Assembly (NCBI GenBank): GCA_944391575.1
Contig: CALXUC010000003.1
Span: 16,459-80,458, forward strand
DNA: 64,000 nt
DNA from: an uncultured Clostridia bacterium
GTDB taxonomy: Bacteria; Bacillota; Clostridia; TANB77; CAG-508
Reading direction: 5' to 3'
How positions within the stretch are numbered: the stretch's first letter is position 1; the number at the start of each line of letters is the position of its first letter. The position numbers and the translations under genes were made by a program. Below the pieces are notes generated by a model. It saw only the letters and a list, made by a program, of their open reading frames with translations, made no database searches and was not told where the DNA came from. This document shows, piece after piece, positions 1-64,000 of the stretch.

Positions 1-103
1 TAATATTTTTTATCAAAAACATAGCTAGGGCGACACAATCTGGGTCTTTGATTGCAAAATATTAATATATAAGTACTTTTAATATTTTAATAAGCTATAA
101 GTA
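1..103 (+). mobile_element. Nested-palindrome MITE-like element, type B, cut by window edge
   Basis: Contains the family core TATCAAAAACATAGCTAGGGCGACACAATCTGGGTCTTTGATTGCAAAAT, the right stem arm ATATTAATATATAAGTAC and an outer AGCTATAAGTA end. It matches the copies at 8044-8196, 19034-19187 and 47790-47940. Confidence 0.75.
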
Positions 104-5216: not shown

Positions 5217-5332
5217 ATGTTCCTTCCTTATTATATCAATTTTTATTAAAATGTCTAATTATAAAATCTATTATATTTTACTATATAATGTGAAAAAAAG
5301 CAAGATTTTACTCCTGCTTTTGTTAAAATTAA

Positions 5333-5473
5333 GTAACAATTCAGCGTGTACTTGCTAAAGGCTTGATATATAGCTATTTTTAGTCAAAACATATCTAGGG
5401 TAACACAATCCGGGTCTTGACTTGCAAATAGCTATATATCAAGCTTTTATTTAAATATCAGCTGAGTTGTTAC
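5333..5473 (+). mobile_element. Nested-palindrome MITE-like element, type A, full copy with TSD
   Basis: TIRs GTAACAATTCAGC / GCTGAGTTGTTAC. Inner stem GCTTGATATATAGCTATTT / AAATAGCTATATATCAAGC. Core ACACAATCCGGGTCTTGA. A perfect 8-bp duplication AAAATTAA sits at 5325-5332 and 5474-5481. Confidence 0.9.
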
Positions 5474-5481
5474 AAAATTAA

Positions 5482-6435
5482 TTAATTTAATCCCACTAAT
5501 TTCATTTTTAAATTAGATAAATCTGTTACTGATATTTTACCATCGCCATTTATATCGCTTGCTGCAATTTTATTTTCCACGAAATTATAATTTTTAACAA
5601 TATATCCTTTTAATAAAGATAAGTCTAATGCAGATAAATTCCCATCTTCGCTAATATCTCCAGTTACTATTATTATATAATTCCTATTATTAACACTTAA
5701 CTCCATACTTGTTGCTAACTTTTCATCTTCTGATACTACTTCTTCACCTCTATATACTTTTATTTCACTTTCACTTTTATTTGTAATATTACTTAATAAT
5801 TCTTTTACAGTTGTATTTGCTGTAATATTTTTAATCATACTTTTTTCTATTTTATATTTTTCAGATTCTATCACATCTGGATCATTAACTACCTTATGCA
5901 CAGTATCAAGTACTAAATCACCATTGCAAGCTATCTCTCCTAAAACTGCTTGTCTTTCATCTGCTGTTGTTGCTGAAAGGAAATCTTCAGATAAGCTTAC
6001 CATTATTAAATCAAATAATGAATATTCTGAATTTAATAAAAAGTACTCAATTCCTGGATATTTCACTTCATCAGTAGTTCCTGTTACTTTTAATTTTAAT
6101 TCTACTGCAAATTCTTGTCCAGGTTCAATGTTACCAAACGTAACTGTAATATAAAAATCAGATTTTTCATAGTTTTTATTATTTATACTTTCAAATTGTG
6201 TTCCTGTAGGTAGCGCAATTATCAATCTTGAACTTGAAAATTTTATATCTGATATATTTTTTAATGTTATTTTATATGTTATAATATCCCCACTTTTAAC
6301 TGCCGTAGTTGCTGGTGGATCTGCTACCATTGTAGCTTCAATATATTTTTGGGACTCTGCAAAATCTTTCTTACTCATACATAGAATTAATAATATAAAT
6401 ATAAAAAATATTAATATAATCGTTTTTTTCTTCAT
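5482..6435 (-). CDS. secreted protein with DUF11/CARDB-like repeat and C-terminal type I dockerin-like module
   Basis: 317 aa with a Sec signal peptide (MKKKTIILIFFIFILLILC). It carries two Ca-binding dockerin-like segments, GDISEDGNLSALDLSLLKGYIV and SDINGDGKISVTDLSNLKMKLVG. Confidence 0.6.
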   Translation of the reverse strand: MKKKTIILIFFIFILLILCMSKKDFAESQKYIEATMVADPPATTAVKSGDIITYKITLKNISDIKFSSSRLIIALPTGTQFESINNKNYEKSDFYITVTFGNIEPGQEFAVELKLKVTGTTDEVKYPGIEYFLLNSEYSLFDLIMVSLSEDFLSATTADERQAVLGEIACNGDLVLDTVHKVVNDPDVIESEKYKIEKSMIKNITANTTVKELLSNITNKSESEIKVYRGEEVVSEDEKLATSMELSVNNRNYIIIVTGDISEDGNLSALDLSLLKGYIVKNYNFVENKIAASDINGDGKISVTDLSNLKMKLVGLN

Positions 6436-6516: not shown

Positions 6517-6545
6517 GAAAAAAGTATATAATTTTTAAAAAAAAG

Positions 6546-6686
6546 GTTACAATTCAGGATATACTTACTAAAAGCTTGGTATATAGCTATTTTTAGTCAA
6601 AACATAGCTTAAGGCAAACAATCCGGGTCTTGACTTGCAAATAGCTATATATCAAGCTTTTATTTAAATGCCTGCTGAATTGTAAC
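6546..6686 (+). mobile_element. Nested-palindrome MITE-like element, type A, full copy with TSD
   Basis: TIRs GTTACAATTCAG / CTGAATTGTAAC. A perfect 8-bp duplication AAAAAAAG sits at 6538-6545 and 6687-6694. Confidence 0.9.
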
Positions 6687-6726
6687 AAAAAAAGATAAAC
6701 CTAATAATAGATTTATCTTTTCATTT

Positions 6727-8043: not shown

Positions 8044-8196
8044 GTTACAACTTGTTCCTATTCACAGCGAAATAAATATTGCGGTACTTATATATTCAAA
8101 AACATAGCTAGGGTATAACAATCCAGGTCTTTGATTGCAAAATATTAATATATAAGTACTTTAATGTGTTCTATAATAAAAGCCATGAATAGTAAC
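8044..8196 (+). mobile_element. Nested-palindrome MITE-like element, type B, degenerate left arm
   Basis: Core CAAAAACATAGCTAGGGTATAACAATCCAGGTCTTTGATTGCAAAATATTAATATATAAGTAC. Outer ends are GTTAC...CTATTCACAGC and GCCATGAATAGTAAC. It ends 2 nt before the pnp stop. No clean TSD. Confidence 0.75.
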
Positions 8197-10538: not shown

Positions 10539-10624
10539 ATCTTGATATATAGCTATTTTTAATCAAAACATATCTGGGGTTTAACAATCCGGGTCTTGAT
10601 TTACAAATAGCTATATATCAAGAT
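10539..10624 (+). repeat. Nested-palindrome element, type A, core-only copy (no outer TIR)
   Basis: ATCTTGATATATAGCTATTTTTAATCAAAACATATCTGGGGTTTAACAATCCGGGTCTTGATTTACAAATAGCTATATATCAAGAT. Confidence 0.85.
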
Positions 10625-11576: not shown

Positions 11577-11606
11577 TTTATTATATTTTACTTTTTATAT
11601 AATTCA

Positions 11607-11650
11607 AAAAAGGAATAAATTATACATTTGTAACTTATTCCTTTTGGTTT
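11607..11650 (+). terminator. terminator-like hairpin after the 11151-11576 ORF
   Basis: 11-bp stem AAAAGGAATAA / TTATTCCTTTT with a 16-nt loop, followed by GGTTTT. Confidence 0.45.
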
Positions 11651-11691
11651 TATCATAATTTTATAAATTTTCTAATTGTTCTTGGGTTACA
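11640..11691 (-). pseudogene. 3'-end remnant of a paralog of the 12660-13091 gene
   Basis: About 46 of 52 nt are identical to 12625-12676, which covers the last codons plus the 3' flank of that gene. Confidence 0.4.
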
Positions 11692-11784
11692 ATCATTACA
11701 TCTTTTTACAACCACTCGTTCGTTTTATCATTTTTACGAGTGATTGTAAATACATTTATTAAATATTATATTATTTTTTATTAC

Positions 11785-11878
11785 TTTTCATCATTATCGT
11801 ACAAAAATCCATAAAATGTAGAATCGTGAATATATATTTCTTTATCTATAATTTTTTATTTTTGTAATCTATTTTCAT
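11785..11878 (-). pseudogene. 5' fragment (frameshifted, truncated) of a paralog of the 13923-14330 gene
   Basis: Near-identical to 14237-14330, and the shared RBS spacer CTTACCTCATATATCTAATA follows. It reads MKIDYKNKK and then hits a stop after a 1-nt deletion relative to the intact copy. Confidence 0.6.
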
Positions 11879-11901
11879 TTCTTACCTCATATATCTAATA
11901 T

Positions 11902-12423
11902 TTACTTTGAAATCATATTTATTTTCTCTATTTCTTCCTTGAGCCATTTTTCGTGAAGATATAATACTTTTTCAAACATTTCTTTTGTATAATACTCCTT
12001 AGGTGTAATATTATTATTTATTGCTTGAAAAATATGTGGCGAATTTTTGGGTTGGCCTAATGATATCCAAAATTCTGAAATTTCTAATAACGAGTTAAAA
12101 TAATCTTTTTTATTCAATGTATCAAGCATCTTTTTAGTTAGATAAACAACCCACTTTTCGCTTTCAAATTCCATTTCAGTTTTTTCATTTTTTGAAAATT
12201 TATATAAAAGCTCTCTAAATTCAATATCACTTAAGCTTTTATCAGTTAATAATACTACATCATTGAAGTTAAAACTATTATTCTCTAACAATTCTTCTTC
12301 ATAGTCATATATGTCTTTTCTTGTAATTTGTGGATTTATTAATTCGTATCCAAAAAGCCCTATATTTATCAATTTCCATGTAATTTTAAAATTCATATTT
12401 TCTAATTCTTTTAATTTATTCAT
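11902..12423 (-). CDS. hypothetical cytosolic protein (immunity-protein-like cassette member)
   Basis: 173 aa, acidic, with no signal peptide or TM segment. It sits in a cassette array sharing junction sequences with the 14.3-kb locus. Confidence 0.4.
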   Translation of the reverse strand: MNKLKELENMNFKITWKLINIGLFGYELINPQITRKDIYDYEEELLENNSFNFNDVVLLTDKSLSDIEFRELLYKFSKNEKTEMEFESEKWVVYLTKKMLDTLNKKDYFNSLLEISEFWISLGQPKNSPHIFQAINNNITPKEYYTKEMFEKVLYLHEKWLKEEIEKINMISK

Positions 12424-12522
12424 ACATATTACACTTTCCGCTTTTTTTAGCTAAATATATTTGTACCCCAAGTTCTCATATAATGCACTCTCTTCACTTA
12501 TCATAAATAATTTTTCTATAAT

Positions 12523-12601
12523 TATTTATAAATAGGATTAATCCATAAAGCCTTAAATTCATTATCTTTTAAACTCATAATAGCATTGTTCATAAATTTT
12601 A
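12523..12601 (-). pseudogene. 3' fragment of a paralog of the 14354-14824 gene
   Basis: 79 nt nearly identical to 14352-14430, covering the last ~26 codons (…NEFKALWINPIYK*). Homology stops abruptly at 12601. Confidence 0.6.
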
Positions 12602-12659
12602 CATTCAATTTATTTTCCTCCTTCCTTTTAATTTTATCATAATTCTATAAATTATCTAA

Positions 12660-13091
12660 TTATTCTTGTGTTACATCTAAAGCTTTTAGTATGTCACGCT
12701 TTAAATCTTCTCCTCTAAAATCGCCTTTTGACTTTTCTATTACTACATTTATAGAATCTATTATATTTTTTATATATAATAATCTTTGCTTTTCTGGAGT
12801 TGCATTAAAAAATTTATCTCTATTTATATTTAATCTTATATCTGCTTCTTTATTTTTACGACTTATATATCTTCTTTCTTTAAATCCTCTATCAATTCTT
12901 TCTTGTGTTACAATCATTGTTATTATAGCTATTAATTTAAATTCTGTACCGTAATTATCTATATTTTCAAGATCTTTTTCTCTGTTACATATAAAATCTA
13001 ATTTTTTTTCTAAAACATTTAAAAAATTTAAAGAGATATTTGCTTTATCTATACCTATTAAATCTATTTCTTCACTTAAGAAAATTCTCAT
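12660..13091 (-). CDS. hypothetical cytosolic protein (immunity-protein-like cassette member)
   Basis: I prefer the ATG at 13091, which has RBS GAGGTGG 7 nt upstream. The ORF track extends to a TTG at 13109. No signal peptide. Confidence 0.4.
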   Translation of the reverse strand: MRIFLSEEIDLIGIDKANISLNFLNVLEKKLDFICNREKDLENIDNYGTEFKLIAIITMIVTQERIDRGFKERRYISRKNKEADIRLNINRDKFFNATPEKQRLLYIKNIIDSINVVIEKSKGDFRGEDLKRDILKALDVTQE

Positions 13092-13469
13092 GCTATCCAC
13101 CTCTACCAATCACTTTTATTTAATTTTAATCCAAGACCATTATGTGTATCTTTTATATTCTATTATCTTATATCTAATTCACATCTTCTTTCTTTTTGCT
13201 TAACACTTTTTCTATTGATTCAATACTCTGTTTGCAAAGTCTTCGTACGTCACTCTCCTTATAGTCAAGATATTTTTGAAATATTGGTAAAAGTAGTTTC
13301 ATATAATATAGTTCCGCTCTTAATATATTGCTCTACAATATCTTTATTTTCTATTTTTTGCACATTTTATTCCTCCGAACATTTTCTAATTTTTATTAAT
13401 TATTTTAATGTTGGTAATCCTTTCTCTAAAAAACATTCATCATTAAATTTAATAATTTTACATTTTTTA

Positions 13470-13856
13470 TCATTTGATTTCAATATACTCACAAACTATA
13501 CTGATTTTATTTCTACTTTTTAAAATAATTTCTAATTCTATATAATTTTTTTCTAAATCTAATACAGATGATTTATAATTATTTTCTATTAACTTTTTTC
13601 GTATATCTTTTATTAAATTTTCGCTATCAGAAATTTTAAATTCTATTATCTCATCATCTATCATGCAAGGTTGGTACATATTACAATTTAATATTAATAC
13701 ATTAAAAAATTCTATTTTTAATGTTTCTGACAAGCCGAAATTATTTAATTTAATAGAAAGTAATTTTTCTATTTCGTCATAAATAAATCCTTGAAAAATC
13801 AAATTATTAATATTAATTTCATTTATAATATCTTTATTTGTATAATCTATTTTCAT
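13470..13856 (-). CDS. hypothetical protein, paralog of the 13923-14330 gene
   Basis: MKIDYTNKDII…VCEYIEIK aligns with MRIDYKNKKII…ICEYVEFFEI of the upstream gene. The start at 13856 was chosen by homology; the ORF track extends to a GTG at 13910. Confidence 0.5.
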   Translation of the reverse strand: MKIDYTNKDIINEININNLIFQGFIYDEIEKLLSIKLNNFGLSETLKIEFFNVLILNCNMYQPCMIDDEIIEFKISDSENLIKDIRKKLIENNYKSSVLDLEKNYIELEIILKSRNKISIVCEYIEIK

Positions 13857-13922
13857 ATTTAATGATATTCCTTTCTTCACTTTCGCTGACGCTACGTCTA
13901 TGAAAGGCACATTTTTTTTAAC

Positions 13923-14330
13923 TTACCTCTCATTTTTAATATTATCATCCCAATTAATTTCAAAAAACTCCACATACTCACAAATTATAGTGATTATGTC
14001 TCCTGTTTCTAAAACGAATTTGGTCTCTATATAATTTTTAAACTCTGAAATCTTTTCTTTTTCCTCTTCCAATATCTTATTTTTTAATTGTTCTTCACCA
14101 ACAGTTTCCCAATTCAATATACCATTAGTATATGACCAAAATTGGCACATTTCACAGTTTAAAGCTAATACATTAACAAATTTTAATTTGAATGTTTTAT
14201 GCAAACAATAATTTTTTAATTTTAACAAAAGTGTTTTTTCATCATTATCGTACAAAAATCCATAAAATGTAGAATCATGAATATATATTTCTTTATCTAT
14301 AATCTTTTTATTTTTATAATCTATTCTCAT
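13923..14330 (-). CDS. hypothetical protein, paralog of the 13470-13856 gene
   Basis: 135 aa with RBS GAGGTAAG. Its 5' end is duplicated at 11785-11878. Confidence 0.5.
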   Translation of the reverse strand: MRIDYKNKKIIDKEIYIHDSTFYGFLYDNDEKTLLLKLKNYCLHKTFKLKFVNVLALNCEMCQFWSYTNGILNWETVGEEQLKNKILEEEKEKISEFKNYIETKFVLETGDIITIICEYVEFFEINWDDNIKNER

Positions 14331-14353
14331 TTCTTACCTCATATATCTAATAC

Positions 14354-14824
14354 TTATTTATAAATAGGATTAATCCATAAAGCCTTAAATTCATTGTCCT
14401 TTAAACTCATAATAGCATTGTTCATAAATTTTATATTGCAATTATAATTGTTTATATCTTTATCCCCTATACATAACCAATTATTTTCTTTACAAAAATA
14501 AATTTTATTTTCTTTTGCTAAATAGTCTCCCATTCCTGATAGCCAATTTCTTTTAGTTTTAACAAAAATTCTACCTTTCCCAATATCCTTTGGAGGAACA
14601 AGCTTTTCTATATTCCAACTATTTTTAGAGCAAAAACCTGTTATAGTCATTATTTGCATATTATCTAAATTTATATCAAAGCCTAAATATGGACAACCTG
14701 TCATTAATGTAAAATGAGTTATATAATCAGGCTCTGTAGTAAAGCTCCTATCTTCTTCATAATATAATATATCCGCCTTAATAGGAGTAGAAGGCTCTTT
14801 ATAAAACAATATTTTTTCGCTCAA
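14354..14824 (-). CDS. hypothetical cytosolic protein (immunity-protein-like cassette member)
   Basis: 156 aa with no signal peptide. Its 3' end is duplicated at 12523-12601. Confidence 0.4.
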   Translation of the reverse strand: MSEKILFYKEPSTPIKADILYYEEDRSFTTEPDYITHFTLMTGCPYLGFDINLDNMQIMTITGFCSKNSWNIEKLVPPKDIGKGRIFVKTKRNWLSGMGDYLAKENKIYFCKENNWLCIGDKDINNYNCNIKFMNNAIMSLKDNEFKALWINPIYK

Positions 14825-14945
14825 TTATATTCCTCCTTCAGTTTATCTTATAATTCTACATATTTCTTAACATTTATTTTTGTTATATTTTACCACTTCA
14901 TCATGATTACTGTCAAGTAGAACTAGTATAGTACAAACTAGTGTA

Positions 14946-17604: not shown

Positions 17605-17690
17605 AGCTTGATATATAGCTATTTTTAATCAAAACATAGCTAAGGTGACACAATCCGGGTCTTGATTTGCAAATAGCTATATATCAAACT
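17605..17690 (+). repeat. Nested-palindrome element, type A, core-only copy
   Basis: AGCTTGATATATAGCTATTTTTAATCAAAACATAGCTAAGGTGACACAATCCGGGTCTTGATTTGCAAATAGCTATATATCAAACT. Confidence 0.85.
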
Positions 17691-18986: not shown

Positions 18987-18998
18987 ATTTTGGAATAG

Positions 18999-19036
18999 AA
19001 AAAATACTAGAGTAAATAAACTCTAGTATTTTTTTT
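18999..19036 (-). terminator. bidirectional rho-independent terminator downstream of rnj
   Basis: Stem AATACTAGAG / CTCTAGTATT with an 8-nt loop, an A6 run before and a T6 run after. The same stem sequence recurs at 40578-40611. Confidence 0.7.
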
Positions 19037-19187
19037 ACAATTTACAGCTATCATTGTAAAGATATTACCGTACTTATATATTAATATTTTGCAATCAAAG
19101 ACCCGGATTGTTAACCCCAGCTATGTTTTTGATAAAAAATATTAATATATAAGTACTACTAATATTTATTTAGCTATGAATTGTAGC
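19034..19187 (-). mobile_element. Nested-palindrome MITE-like element, type B, full copy
   Basis: Ends TTTACAATTTACAGCT / AGCTATGAATTGTAGC. Inner stem GTACTTATATATTAATATTTT / AAAATATTAATATATAAGTAC. Near-TSD AGTATTTT / AGTGTTTT. It is inserted in the T-run of the rnj terminator. Confidence 0.85.
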
Positions 19188-19202
19188 AGTGTTTTCTATT
19201 TA

Positions 19203-21038: not shown

Positions 21039-21117
21039 ATTATATTCTCCTCTCTTTTCTTATAAATCTTATTATTTAATTTTGGCATAACTTAAATTAA
21101 GTATAAAGCTATTTTAT

Positions 21118-21266
21118 GTTACAGTTTAGTATGAGAACATACAACTTTTGCGAAAACTTGATATATAGCTATTTGTAAGTCAAGACCCGGATTGTGTCAC
21201 TCTAGCTATGTTTTGACTAAAAATAGCTATATATCAAGTTTTATAAAATTTTTACTGAATTGTAAC
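21118..21266 (-). mobile_element. Nested-palindrome MITE-like element, type A, full copy with TSD
   Basis: TIRs GTTACAGTTTAG / CTGAATTGTAAC. A perfect 8-bp duplication TATTTTAT sits at 21110-21117 and 21267-21274. Confidence 0.9.
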
Positions 21267-21534
21267 TATTTTATACTCATTTTATAAAAATATTTTATCT
21301 CTTACTACATATATATTAGTCTGTTTTTTATATAATTATACATTACATTCCTAATTATATATTAATATTTGTCTATATTAACTATAAATTATAATAATCA
21401 TATTAACATAACTAATAAAAGCTAACTTATTCGCCAGCTTTAAAAATATTTTAATTCTCCGAACATCCTATTTTTTAAACAATAAATTTATATCTCTTTT
21501 TTCCCAAATGCAACTTTGGTACTTGCTAGGTTGT

Positions 21535-21563
21535 ATTATACTACATTTTATATAATTTGTCAA
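21535..21563 (-). promoter_or_regulatory. consensus sigma-A promoter pointing toward rnj
   Basis: Minus strand reads TTGACA - 17 nt - TATAAT. This would give a ~490-nt leader that contains the MITE at 21118-21266. Confidence 0.5.
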
Positions 21564-21592
21564 ATAGAATTTTGTAAGCTTACTTAATAACG

Positions 21593-21733
21593 GAAACAAC
21601 TCAGCAGATATTCAAATAAAAGCTTGATATATAGCTATTTGTAAGTCAAGACCCGGATTGTTACACCTGAGCTTGTTTTTTGACTGAAAATAGCTATATA
21701 TCAAGCTTTAGAAAGTATATTCTAAGTTGTTAC
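21593..21733 (-). mobile_element. Nested-palindrome MITE-like element, type A, full copy with TSD
   Basis: TIRs GAAACAACTCAGC / (A)CTAAGTTGTTAC. A perfect 8-bp duplication TAATAACG sits at 21585-21592 and 21734-21741. Confidence 0.9.
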
Positions 21734-21754
21734 TAATAACGTTATAGTTTAATA

Positions 21755-40541: not shown

Positions 40542-40612
40542 AAGTTTGATGATATTTTCACTAATTTTTTAGGGAATAAAAAATACTAGAGTGTGCGAAC
40601 TCTAGTATTTTA
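40542..40612 (+). ncRNA. candidate ~70-nt small RNA (promoter-to-terminator unit)
   Basis: Bounded by the consensus promoter and the hairpin AATACTAGAG/CTCTAGTATT plus TTTT. The only ORF inside is a 7-codon one without an RBS. Confidence 0.25.
40578..40611 (-). terminator. bidirectional terminator after the replication-relaxation gene
   Basis: Stem AATACTAGAG / CTCTAGTATT with an 8-nt loop, an A6 run before and T4 after. It lies 6 nt past the stop at 40617. Confidence 0.65.
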
Positions 40613-40616
40613 CTTA

Positions 40617-41555
40617 TTAATTTAAAATCGCTATATCTGGATTTTCTATTTTATATTTTTTAGTTTCTTTATCTAAAACGAATTTAACAAGAGTTTTTCC
40701 TAACTTTTCTGAAATTTGTTTTAAATCTGTTGTAAAGTATAATGGCATATCTTTTATTTCTACTTTATTTACTACGACAGTTTTAAATGTTTCTGCCATA
40801 TGCTTATCATCTTCGCATACAAATATTATAAGTGGTTTTTGTGGGAATCCACCATCCATTGGTACGAAGTTATCATAAAAATCTTGATATAATCTCATTT
40901 TATCTACTAATTTGTTTTGCCAATCTTCTTCTCTTCTTACAACTTCAAATAAAAAGTCTAATTCTTTTTTGTCTCTTTCTAATTTTACACAACCGCCTGT
41001 TACTTTAAATTTTTTCCCCATCATTTTCGCATTTAATGTTGGTTTTGGAGCATAATCTTTGGCTAATCCTACTTTTTCTAAATATGCTATTATAACTTGA
41101 TTTCCAGCTAATCTTTTCTTAAACATTTCTATTGGTTTTGTATTATCAGTTGGTTGCCACTTACATTCTACTTCTTTAGAATTTAATAAGTATTTTCCCA
41201 TTTTTTCCATACAGTAAATTCTAAAAATGCCTTGTCCTTCTTCTGATTCAAAAAAATATCTTGTTAACATTTTTAATTTTACCATTTGTTCTAATTTTGT
41301 ATTTACTCTATCTTGTGTATCTATATCAACATTTTCTATTTTTAGCATTTGAAAAATTTGGCGTGATGTCATAAATTCAAATTTATTAATTAATTCCAAA
41401 ATTTTAAAATGTACATCTGTAATTTGACCATTATTTATTCTAGAAATAATTTGATTTATTGATACAAATCCATCCTTTCCAGCAAATTTTTTTATTTCTC
41501 CTTCTCTCATTGCAAAAGGTGATACTTTTGCTTTAATTTCAGCATCTGTTACCAT
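40617..41555 (-). CDS. replication-relaxation (Replic_Relax) family protein, plasmid/ICE-associated
   Basis: 312 aa. HFKILELINKFEFMTSRQIFQML…KLEQMVKLKMLTRYFF…FRIYCMEKMGKYLL fits the wHTH pattern of that family. Confidence 0.5.
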   Translation of the reverse strand: MVTDAEIKAKVSPFAMREGEIKKFAGKDGFVSINQIISRINNGQITDVHFKILELINKFEFMTSRQIFQMLKIENVDIDTQDRVNTKLEQMVKLKMLTRYFFESEEGQGIFRIYCMEKMGKYLLNSKEVECKWQPTDNTKPIEMFKKRLAGNQVIIAYLEKVGLAKDYAPKPTLNAKMMGKKFKVTGGCVKLERDKKELDFLFEVVRREEDWQNKLVDKMRLYQDFYDNFVPMDGGFPQKPLIIFVCEDDKHMAETFKTVVVNKVEIKDMPLYFTTDLKQISEKLGKTLVKFVLDKETKKYKIENPDIAILN

Positions 41556-42425: not shown

Positions 42426-42486
42426 TTTTTGATAAAAAATATTAATATATAAGTACTACTAATATTTATTTAGCTATGAATTGTAA
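42426..42486 (-). repeat. half copy of type B nested-palindrome element
   Basis: TTTTTGATAAAAAATATTAATATATAAGTACTACTAATATTTATTTAGCTATGAATTGTAAC is near-identical to 19126-19187. The core and the other arm are missing. Confidence 0.8.
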
Positions 42487-43434: not shown

Positions 43435-43520
43435 TCTTAAGATATAGCTATTTTTAATCAAAAAACAAGCTCAAGCGACACAATCCGGGTCTTGATTTGC
43501 AAATAGCTATATCTCAAGAA
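43435..43520 (+). repeat. Nested-palindrome element, type A, core-only copy
   Basis: TCTTAAGATATAGCTATTTTTAATCAAAAAACAAGCTCAAGCGACACAATCCGGGTCTTGATTTGCAAATAGCTATATCTCAAGAA. Confidence 0.85.
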
Positions 43521-47789: not shown

Positions 47790-47940
47790 CTATTCATAGC
47801 TTCCAACACAAATATCTTGAAGTACTTATATATTAATATTTTGCAATCAAAGACCCGGATTGTTACACCCTAGCTATGTTTTTGATAAAAAATATTAATA
47901 TATAAGTACTACTAATATTTATTCAGCTATGAATTGTTAC
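47790..47940 (-). mobile_element. Nested-palindrome MITE-like element, type B, full copy
   Basis: Ends CTATTCATAGCT / AGCTATGAATTGTTAC. Perfect inner stem GTACTTATATATTAATATTTT / AAAATATTAATATATAAGTAC. It starts 2 nt after the stop at 47788. Confidence 0.85.
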
Positions 47941-49016: not shown

Positions 49017-49045
49017 AAAAACCTCCTTAAATAAATATAATTTAT

Positions 49046-49135
49046 AAAGCTTAATATATAGCTATTTTTAATCAAAACATAGCTGGGGCTTAACAATCCG
49101 GGTCTTGATTTGCAAATAGCTATATATTAAGCTTT
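49046..49135 (+). repeat. Nested-palindrome element, type A, core-only copy
   Basis: AAAGCTTAATATATAGCTATTTTTAATCAAAACATAGCTGGGGCTTAACAATCCGGGTCTTGATTTGCAAATAGCTATATATTAAGCTTT. Confidence 0.85.
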
Positions 49136-49139
49136 TTTA

Positions 49140-49287
49140 ATTACAGTTCACTAAAAATTTTATAAAACTTGATATATAGCTATTTTTAGTCAAAACATAG
49201 CTAGGGTTTAACAATCCGGGTCTTGACTCGCAAATAGCTATATATCAAGTTTTGACAAAGTTATTTATTCTCTTACTGAATTGTAAC
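49140..49287 (+). mobile_element. Nested-palindrome MITE-like element, type A, full copy adjacent to the previous one
   Basis: Ends ATTACAGTTCAC / CTGAATTGTAAC. Near-TSD CTTTTTTA / CTTTTTAT. It is inserted at the right edge of the 49046-49135 copy. Confidence 0.85.
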
Positions 49288-55308: not shown

Positions 55309-55686
<378 letters not shown>

Positions 55687-55708
55687 TTACTGTTCAATAA
55701 GAGAATAT

Positions 55709-55735
55709 CTAACTTTTGCAAAAACTTGATATATA
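55709..55735 (-). repeat. 27-bp remnant of type A element edge
   Basis: ACTTTTGCAAAAACTTGATATATAG matches 21144-21168, the flank plus stem start of that copy. Confidence 0.5.
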
Positions 55736-55748
55736 GTATAATAATATA

Positions 55749-61665: not shown

Positions 61666-61753
61666 AATCTTGATATATAACTATTTGCAAATCAAGACCC
61701 GGATTGTTAAGCCATAGCTATGTTTTGATTAAAAATAGCTATATATCAAGATT
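61666..61753 (-). repeat. Nested-palindrome element, type A, core-only copy inside the spoIIIA operon
   Basis: AATCTTGATATATAACTATTTGCAAATCAAGACCCGGATTGTTAAGCCATAGCTATGTTTTGATTAAAAATAGCTATATATCAAGATT, located between spoIIIAB and spoIIIAC. Confidence 0.85.
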
Positions 61754-63288: not shown

Positions 63289-63330
63289 AAAAATAGAACT
63301 AAAATTTTAAAAATTTTAGTTCTATTTTTT
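63289..63330. terminator. bidirectional terminator between prmC and spoIIIAA
   Basis: Near-perfect palindrome ATAGAACTAAAATTTT / AAAATTTTAGTTCTAT, flanked by an A-run and a T6 run. Confidence 0.6.
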
Positions 63331-63387
63331 GATAAAAAATATTAATATGTAAGTACCACTAATATTTATCTAGCTGTGAATAGTAAC
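63326..63387 (-). repeat. half copy of type B nested-palindrome element
   Basis: TTTTTGATAAAAAATATTAATATGTAAGTACCACTAATATTTATCTAGCTGTGAATAGTAAC, comparable to 42426-42486 and 19126-19187. Confidence 0.75.
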
Positions 63388-63427
63388 TGATATATAGCTA
63401 TTTTTAGTTAAAAACCAAGCTTAAGCA
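63388..63427 (+). repeat. left-half fragment of type A element, ending at the prmC stop codon
   Basis: TGATATATAGCTATTTTTAGTTAAAAACCAAGCTTAAGCAC. The ACAATCCGGGTCTTGA core and the right arm are absent. Confidence 0.65.
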
Positions 63428-64000
63428 CTACAAGTTATAATTCACCACAATTACTCTATCTAGACCGCTTAAATCTTTAATACATTTTATATTTTTAAAC
63501 TTTTCCTCAAATATTTTACTTACACTTTCCCTTTGATTATACCCTATCTCTAAAAAAATTTGACCAGCTTTCTCTAGAAATTTATCTGTATTATTAAATA
63601 TATTTCTATAAAAATCTAAGCCATCTTTTCCTCCATCTAATGCCATTTTAGGCTCATTCTGAACATCTTTTGTTAATGTATTTATAACATCACTTTCTAT
63701 ATATGGCGGATTTGAAACTATTATATTATATCTATCCTTTAAATTCTCAAACATATCCGAATTTATAAACTCTATTTTTTCATATACTCCATGTTTTTTT
63801 GCATTTTTTATAGCCACATTTAAAGCACCGTTACTCTTATCTACTGCAGTTATATCCACGTTTTTGCAATATTTTGCTAAAATTATAGCTATTATTCCAC
63901 TTCCTGTACACATATCAAGGATTTTAATATCACTTTTCGTGTCTTTAATACTTTTAATAACTTCTTCAACTAAAATTTCTGTATCTGCCCTTGGGATTAA
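63428..64000 (-). CDS. prmC: release-factor glutamine N5-methyltransferase PrmC/HemK (5' end outside the window)
   Basis: The frame is open to the window edge. It reads …LIPRADTEILVEEV…ILDMCTGSGIIAI (motif I) and IVSNPPYI (NPPY). Confidence 0.85.
   Translation of the reverse strand, partial: LIPRADTEILVEEVIKSIKDTKSDIKILDMCTGSGIIAIILAKYCKNVDITAVDKSNGALNVAIKNAKKHGVYEKIEFINSDMFENLKDRYNIIVSNPPYIESDVINTLTKDVQNEPKMALDGGKDGLDFYRNIFNNTDKFLEKAGQIFLEIGYNQRESVSKIFEEKFKNIKCIKDLSGLDRVIVVNYNL

Follow-up and report, generated by a model that had tools for sequence, protein, structure and literature searches.

The short repeats scattered through the DNA analyzed here are a previously uncatalogued MITE family of the IS66/ISBst12 type, a well-known kind of element, and what sets them apart is how densely they occur and how they are assembled from modules, with a compensated, invariant-loop hairpin at the core. 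We consider it highly probable that the family is non-autonomous and is moved in trans by a single-ORF transposase of the IS66 family (ISBst12 group), an enzyme whose identity we infer from the ends of the repeats and the footprint they leave. The window, by which we mean the whole 64-kb stretch that was analyzed, comes from an uncultured low-GC gut Clostridia bacterium and has a G+C content of 26%. Its genes are housekeeping and sporulation genes of Firmicute type (LeuRS, PNPase, RNase J, ComEC, the spoIIIA operon, SpoVAD), together with type IV pilus genes and a dockerin protein.

A loop-motif scan of reference genomes led to two MAGs named “uncultured Clostridia bacterium”, CAKPRQ01 (Hadza gut) and CALXCD01, the first of which is in parts syntenic with the window at 83-90% nucleotide identity. 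Metagenome contigs at 94-99.9% identity to the window were also recovered and were treated as conspecific. Beyond the ~18 loci of the window, the relatives contain 40 more copies of the repeat. When a metagenome collection was scanned with an 18-nt loop motif, 120 loci were returned, about 15 of them real and the remainder chance matches; the repeat is confined to a few low-GC contigs in that collection, and its lineage range therefore looks narrow.

Repeats in the window were located with a profile HMM built from eight full copies (nhmmer). The profile recovered every one of the 18 copies and fragments that a preliminary description had listed, and their intervals add up to ~1.93 kb, in agreement with the ~1.9 kb given there. 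This amounts to ~3% of the window, or about one copy per 3.5 kb (Table 1). The 16-nt loop motif ACAATCCGGGTCTTGA occurs 12 times in the window, against 0.02 occurrences expected by chance. The copies had been described as all intergenic, in both orientations and in several cases abutting stop codons. Indeed, none overlaps any ORF of at least 100 aa, dispersed copies lie on both strands, and abutment is true for the copies at 5333 (whose right TSD abuts the stop codon at 5482), 8044 (which terminates 3 nt from the PNPase stop codon) and 47790. Several entries in the list required revision: the fragment given as 55709-55735 is longer, and the loci at 10539, 17605, 43435, 49046 and 61666, although present, are hairpin modules with neither TIRs nor TSD. 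Three other entries are truncated pieces. The longer fragment, at 55685-55736, lies 20 nt upstream of the ribosome-binding site of a HIT gene; the idea that it splits an alaS-like gene was rejected, since the ORF downstream encodes the HIT protein. The RNase J stop codon is on one side of the copy at 19034-19187 and a conventional terminator hairpin (18988-19037) on the other, the copy sitting in the T-tract of that hairpin. That terminator and another at 40567-40616 are similar, bidirectional A-tract/hairpin/T-tract structures with the core CTAGAGT...ACTCTAG.

Table 1. Repeat copies in the window and IS66-like elements used for comparison of termini (TSD flank coordinates in brackets)
Location	Strand	Feature	Details
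1-103	+	Partial copy, GTACTTATATATTAATATTTT-arm subfamily, cut by window start	nhmmer 4-79, E 2.7e-17; 91% to 8096-8162
5333-5473	+	Composite, 141 bp; ends GTAACAATTCAG / GTAACAACTCAG (reverse complement)	Perfect TSD AAAATTAA (5325-5332 / 5474-5481)
6546-6686	+	Composite, 141 bp; GTTACAATTCAG at both ends	Perfect TSD AAAAAAAG (6538-6545 / 6687-6694)
8044-8196	+	Composite, second arm subfamily; internal deletion (part of left arm)	Imperfect TSD
10539-10624	+	Solo hairpin module between rpsO and pnp	No TIR/TSD
17605-17690	+	Solo hairpin module	No TIR/TSD
19034-19187	-	Composite, second arm subfamily	Near-perfect flanks
21118-21266	-	Composite, 149 bp	Perfect TSD TATTTTAT (21110-21117 / 21267-21274); absent at matching site of relative L023
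21593-21733	-	Composite, 141 bp	Perfect TSD TAATAACG (21585-21592 / 21734-21741)
42426-42486	-	Truncated half copy (one arm and one TIR), second arm subfamily	94% to 19126-19202
43435-43520	+	Solo hairpin module	
47790-47940	-	Composite, second arm subfamily; one degenerate end	Begins 2 nt after stop codon 47788
49046-49135	+	Solo hairpin module adjoining the 49140 composite	Absent in relative L016
49140-49287	+	Composite, 148 bp	Flanks CTTTTTTA / CTTTTTAT; absent in relative L016
55685-55736	-	Terminal 52-bp fragment: one TIR and outer module to arm edge	85% to 21117-21168
61666-61753	-	Solo hairpin module	
63326-63387	-	Truncated half copy, second arm subfamily; TIR at its end	
63388-63427	+	Truncated left arm and part of hairpin loop; abuts the 63326-63387 fragment	nhmmer 63386-63433, E 1e-4
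L171 14107-15741		IS66-like, Geobacillus pHTA426	Ends GTATCTATTCAGCCC / GTAACTATTCAGCCC; perfect 8-bp TSD GACGAGTT
L172 526-2155		IS66-like, B. thuringiensis pLM4	GTAACTACTCAGCTT at both ends; TSD imperfect
L173		AT-rich (30%-GC) metagenome IS	GTAACTACTCAGCCC at both ends; TSD imperfect
L178, L179		IS66-like	Left ends of same type as L171-L173

The flanks of the copies carry the footprint of mobility. All four of the perfect 8-bp duplications claimed for the window were found where they had been placed (Table 1). When the window was pooled with 28 loci from related MAGs, 14 of the resulting 31 full copies had flanks identical at 8/8 positions and a further 4 at 7/8, versus none and 1.2%, respectively, of 930 mismatched pairs of left and right flanks. 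The duplicated 8-mers are mutually unrelated and 87.5% A+T, and their positions 2-7 are almost purely A/T. Empty sites exist as well, in that individual copies are missing at matching sites in related genomes (relative ~88% identical). At sites flanked to left and right by aligned sequence of the relative MAG, three copies of the window have no counterpart: 49046-49135 and 49140-49287 in L016, and 21118-21266 in L023, where the downstream junction AAAATAGCTTTATA is uninterrupted. The promoter at window positions 21563-21535 has a copy upstream of it both in the window (21593-21733) and in L023, ~16 bp apart. These two copies belong to different subfamilies, have opposite orientations and lie between different flanks, and thus represent independent insertions.

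Within the species, almost every copy is shared by the conspecific metagenome contigs, a near-fixation that offers no evidence of present-day activity. There are two exceptions. The contig L034 lacks 127 bp, including the solo hairpin at 10539, with TATTT(T)AT microhomology at the boundaries of the missing segment, and L041 has undergone a 118-bp deletion through recombination between the hairpins of the neighbors 49046-49135 and 49140-49287, which left a chimera with one TIR. Near-fixation is what one would look for if the repeats were non-mobile, whether as conserved regulatory palindromes or as products of local duplication. However, such a reading is almost certainly wrong: copies are dispersed beside unrelated genes, flanked by unrelated 8-bp duplications and missing at matching sites in the relative, and in two species different subfamilies have inserted ~16 bp apart in opposite orientations. 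The original reading of the repeats as MITEs therefore stands. They are dispersed, short (50-159 bp) and non-coding, with a 12-nt TIR, a fixed 8-bp TSD far above chance, empty sites and within-species indels, and no full copy has a stop-free stretch of more than 48 aa, whichever frame is read.

The non-coding stretch that contains the promoter mentioned above (21271-21583, upstream of RNase J) is ~82% conserved in L023. Its promoter (21563-21535) is a perfect TTGACA-17-TATAAT, a terminator-like hairpin is present at 21441-21418, and the stretch may be a leader or small RNA. MITE insertions just upstream of this stretch have occurred independently in two species.

The termini link these repeats to a family of insertion sequences. 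The TIR, previously put at ~13 nt, is 12 nt long and reads GTTACAATTCAG, with the variants GTAACAACTCAGC, GTAACTACTCAG and GTGACTACTCAG; across positions 1-12 the left and right ends are complementary in mostly 71-97% of cases (median ~90%), from position 13 onward the values are mostly far under 60%, and sequence conservation likewise does not extend past nucleotide 12. Ends of the IS66 family, ISBst12 group, start with GTAA and have the subgroup consensus GTAACTAYTCAGC; the comparison was made with ends read from L171, L172, L173 and L179 and with those of the published ISDge4. MITE termini fit the skeleton GTnACnnnTCAG(C) seen in these ISBst12-group ends. The main-type end GTTACAATTCAG agrees with ISBst12-type ends at 10/12 positions and the 141-bp-type end GTAACAACTCAGC with an ISBst12-type IS end at 13/14, anchored at the end, while the variants GTAACTACTCAG (L002) and GTGACTACTCAG (L013) are identical to IS ends at 12/12. 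The published element ISDge4 of Deinococcus (IS66 family, ISBst12 group) has the ends GTGACTACTCAGCA / GTAACTGCTCAGCA and an 8-bp direct repeat, CCTCGATG (PMC12898284), and the ends of the IS66 family in general start with GTAAGCG and come with a direct repeat of 8 bp (PMC11946415). In other words, the 12-nt TIR and the 8-bp footprint match those of single-ORF IS66-family ISBst12 elements, and so, as far as sequence comparison can tell, the source IS family is identifiable as IS66, ISBst12 group.

Members of that group (ISBst12, ISDge4 and the pHTA426 and pLM4 elements) share with the MITEs the skeleton, at 10-13 of 12-14 positions, and the 8-bp duplication. They differ in being autonomous elements of ~1.6 kb with a DDE_Tnp_IS66 transposase of 470-490 aa, whereas the MITEs, at 50-159 bp, have no ORF. 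Beyond the termini the MITEs have no sequence in common with those ISs, and their internal hairpin is absent from all inspected ISBst12-type IS ends (nhmmer negative). Just inside the ends, at positions 12-22 of copies of the 150-bp type (L028 4453-4602, L007 2664-2813), a second TIR-like motif, GTAACTATTTT, follows right after the terminal GTTACAATTCA. Nine nucleotides of it are identical to the Geobacillus IS terminus, and the same 11-mer recurs in L173, 40 nt inward from the left end. The motif is a candidate for a subterminal repeat to which the transposase would bind.

It is very improbable that the MITEs are mobilized by another IS family that duplicates 8 bp (ISL3, IS6/IS26, IS256 or IS1595) and that the ISBst12 resemblance is coincidental. 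Several IS families give 8-bp duplications (ISfinder summaries), the cognate IS was not found in the DNA searched, and the commonest terminus, GTTACAATTCAG, is at 2/12 positions off every IS66-type end inspected, all of which would suit a source of this kind. However, the match is end-anchored and covers all invariant GTnACnnnTCAG positions, and some variants reach full identity. Exact matches to the skeleton, written GTNACNNNTCAG, are expected 0.55 times in 64 kb, yet the window has 6, all of them at element ends. MITE ends do not resemble those of ISL3, IS6 and IS256, which start with GG or GA.

No transposase had been noticed in the window, and both tblastn and Pfam scans of ~42 ORFs (all those of at least 250 aa included) were likewise negative there. 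Searches of the window, of ~220 kb from the relative MAG and of contigs from conspecifics and metagenomes turned up neither an IS66 transposase nor a TIR-bounded IS, and tblastn with two IS66-type transposases against all DNA fetched from the lineage returned nothing. Every solo TIR in the window and loci turned out to belong to a mini-MITE or a truncated copy, or to be a chance match. The most AT-rich hits of two large protein searches gave ISs with related ends (GTAACTACTCAGCCC) in which the exact MITE terminus was absent, and nothing tied these ISs to the host organism. MAGs usually lack ISs that are present in several copies. A single long repeat was seen among the loci of the relative (L005 3141-4817, L025 1784-3460; 1.75 kb) and was rejected as the parent IS. 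It consists of two paralogous genes, 92% identical and located on one MAG contig, for a protein of 558 aa, and one of the two adjoins a MITE; from inspection of its sequence, the protein is taken to be AAA-ATPase/PD-(D/E)XK-like rather than a transposase.

The repeats had been described as nested palindromes. Palindromic they are, but a TIR mini-MITE and a hairpin can be told apart in them as modules, and either one is also found alone. Three states can thus be distinguished: a composite of 141-159 bp, a hairpin module of 86-94 nt without TIR or TSD (five in the window and more in MAGs), and a TIR-only mini-MITE of 50-56 bp, found in the relative MAG. The sequence is ...CTATTTTACAAAAGTTATATG... 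in the mini-MITE L027 and ...CTATTTTACAAAA[hairpin]TTTTGCAAAAGTTATATG... in the composite L007; the hairpin of the composite is flanked by TTTTACAAAA and TTTTGCAAAA, of which the mini-MITE has one copy. The palindromic site TTTTRCAAAA accordingly occurs once in the mini-MITE and borders the hairpin on both flanks in the composite. The hairpin is present on no fewer than three unrelated outer backbones that have only the 12-nt TIR in common, a distribution poorly explained by a single chance capture. Four copies have a loop whose orientation is reversed with respect to the outer module, an outcome that recombination between long inverted arms would produce.

This modularity raises the question of whether the hairpin moves by itself, as an independent element of the REP/RAYT or IS200/IS605-PATE type that travels as single-stranded DNA without a TSD and became nested in the mini-MITE. 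Solo hairpins that have neither TIRs nor TSDs, the repetition of TTTTRCAAAA around the hairpin in composites, and the conspecific contig without a solo hairpin would all agree with this. So would the complementarity of the arms, which is kept as their sequence drifts, as expected under recognition by a structure-specific enzyme. We nevertheless regard such independent movement as improbable. No HUH/Y1 transposase was found among the ~42 window ORFs scanned, and solo copies have no conserved target or flanking tetranucleotide beside them. The indel in L034 is larger than the hairpin and bounded by microhomology, and therefore looks like a deletion; L041 shows that deletion can yield copies lacking a TIR; and a remnant of the outer module, a few nucleotides long, persists in several solo hairpins. 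Two loci that do not match each other, in two species (window 49035-49287, L003 2576-2848), have a solo hairpin directly followed by a composite, and in the window the TSD of the composite overlaps the foot of the solo hairpin. These tandems may reflect preferred insertion beside existing hairpins.

Returning to an IS66-type origin, we propose the following course of events. A DDE transposase, encoded elsewhere in the genome or now lost, would recognize the 12-nt termini with their GTnACnnnTCAG skeleton and insert the element by an 8-bp staggered cut into A/T-rich DNA, at a target of the form NWWWWWWN. The surviving copies would be mostly those just past stop codons and clear of the promoter of the following gene. 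At some stage the hairpin module was probably placed at the central TTTTRCAAAA site of a mini-MITE, and the composite would then have been amplified after its assembly; this order of assembly is our reconstruction from the three states. The long inverted arms would destabilize the element, giving rise to loop inversion and to deletions between neighbors, and leaving behind TIR-less hairpins and half copies.

The stems of the hairpin are strongly compensated. Its layout is an A-tract, a stem of 21+5 bp, an asymmetric loop and a T-tract, with the A- and T-tracts measuring 3-5 nt on both sides. Two to three G/C pairs at the base of the stem are conserved, the stem being otherwise AT-rich, and T93 and T94 are at least 90% conserved. 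In an alignment of 48 modules, pairing extends to 97.9% of stem cells, and 14 of the 26 stem pairs show double compensatory changes (one pair, for example, is GC in 20, UA in 20 and CG in 6). None of 500 shuffles reaches this level and slid controls come nowhere near it. The loop varies in its 5' half but is nearly invariant across species in its 3' half, ACAATCCGGGTCTTGA. Folding z-scores range from -5 to -9, and the better fold of the TCAAGACCCGGATTGT strand is due to one G.U pair.

It is possible, though in our judgment unlikely, that the hairpin is a functional structure selected by the host, such as a bidirectional terminator or a 3'-UTR stabilizer or processing site, which the MITE merely spreads and whose stems would be kept intact by selection for base-pairing. 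The stem compensation, the invariant loop, the strong folds, the A-tract/stem/T-tract build with its conserved T93 and T94, and the presence of the hairpin on three unrelated outer backbones all speak for this possibility. So does its position, since copies typically follow a stop codon (median distance roughly 30 nt) and precede the next start by about 100 nt. On the other hand, a terminator scan did not call the hairpins, finding only a small internal stem in one copy, and an AT-rich stem, a loop of ~30 nt and a T-run of only 3-5 contrast with the G+C-rich stem, small loop and U-tract of an intrinsic terminator, although the G/C pairs at the base of the stem and the short T-run on both sides are conserved. 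At 19034-19187 a conventional terminator follows the copy, which is therefore dispensable there, and relatives lack the hairpin at the same genes. Orientation with respect to transcription is mixed (22:10 overall, 4:5 in the window), and because the loop also flips relative to the ends, no conclusion follows from the orientation bias. G.U intermediates are no commoner than other mismatches, which fits a palindrome maintained at the DNA level; together with the mixed orientation this means that nothing specifically favors an RNA-level over a DNA-level constraint. Arm complementarity could, for instance, be kept by quasi-palindrome template switching or by an enzyme that recognizes the structure. 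The layout after stop codons is compatible with a terminator-like role and equally with purifying selection against insertions in promoters. No sigma-70-type promoter was seen by eye within the element, and in a scan promoter-like sites were not in excess in the region.

A broader version of these ideas is that the hairpin is a structure-constrained unit, either a new dispersed bidirectional terminator or RNA-processing hairpin or a self-mobile REP-like one, that was captured at least three times by an IS66-type mini-MITE and spread into 3' UTRs genome-wide. We think it distinctly unlikely, but if a functional hairpin was in fact captured in this way, the transposon would be a delivery vehicle for a regulatory hairpin. 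Until function data indicate otherwise, the element is ordinary mobile DNA.

The repeats had also been said to resemble no named repeat family, and this was upheld by the Rfam, plasmid, phage and viral collections and by the literature searched. Over the whole window, Rfam gave no hits at gathering thresholds and only generic miRNA hairpins below them. No similar DNA was found in the plasmid collection, apart from one weak chance hit, or in the phage collection; viral contigs gave no hits, and an exact-sequence search of the literature returned nothing relevant. The closest likenesses are of kind. Correia repeat-enclosed elements, the MITEs of Neisseria, are co-transcribed with neighboring genes. 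Like the present repeats, they are dense, intergenic, palindromic MITEs (~100-155 bp) with long and short forms, but their TIRs are 26 bp and they duplicate TA, as against 12 nt and 8 bp here, and there is no sequence similarity. More generally, the TA duplication and family TIRs of Correia-, RUP- and ERIC-type elements are not seen, the TSD here being 8 bp and of varied sequence. BOX and RUP of Streptococcus pneumoniae and bcr1 of the Bacillus cereus group are also small intergenic Firmicutes repeats that form stable hairpins. BOX is modular as well, combining boxA, boxB and boxC in different ways, but lacks a TSD; RUP, which is linked to IS630, duplicates TA and bcr1 duplicates TTTAT, whereas these MITEs have an 8-bp TSD and no sequence similarity to any of the three. 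REP/BIME sequences with their RAYT resemble the solo hairpins in being dispersed intergenic palindromes without TIR or TSD that keep complementarity despite drift. However, REPs are 20-40 nt long with a conserved GTAG head and a RAYT gene, whereas the solo hairpin is 86-94 nt long with a large conserved loop; no GTAG head is present, and no Y1/HUH protein is encoded among the ~42 ORFs scanned.

The family thus provides a MITE for the ISBst12 group, none of which was found in the literature searched. As a very dense repeat, it is a useful marker for this lineage of uncultured gut Clostridia. Its three-state system of mini-MITE, hairpin and composite is a tractable case of MITE build-up and decay, and the combination of a position after stop codons with a compensated hairpin offers a testable case for 3'-UTR structures borne by MITEs. 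It is also an assembly problem, in that many public metagenome contigs of the species end inside the repeat. Contigs that end in copies include L001, L044, L045 and L047-L050, and the element fragments short-read assemblies.

Two other regions of the window deserve mention. On the minus strand at 11600-14900 there is a cassette of small paralogous ORFs, including members of the Imm44 and DUF2247 families, with internal direct repeats and 23% GC. It resembles a polymorphic-toxin immunity gene array, and conspecific contigs differ in what it contains (L030 and L031 versus L033, L032 and L034). At 40617-41555, amid housekeeping genes, lies an ORF with a Replic_Relax (replication-relaxation) domain that may have been left behind by an integrated mobile element.
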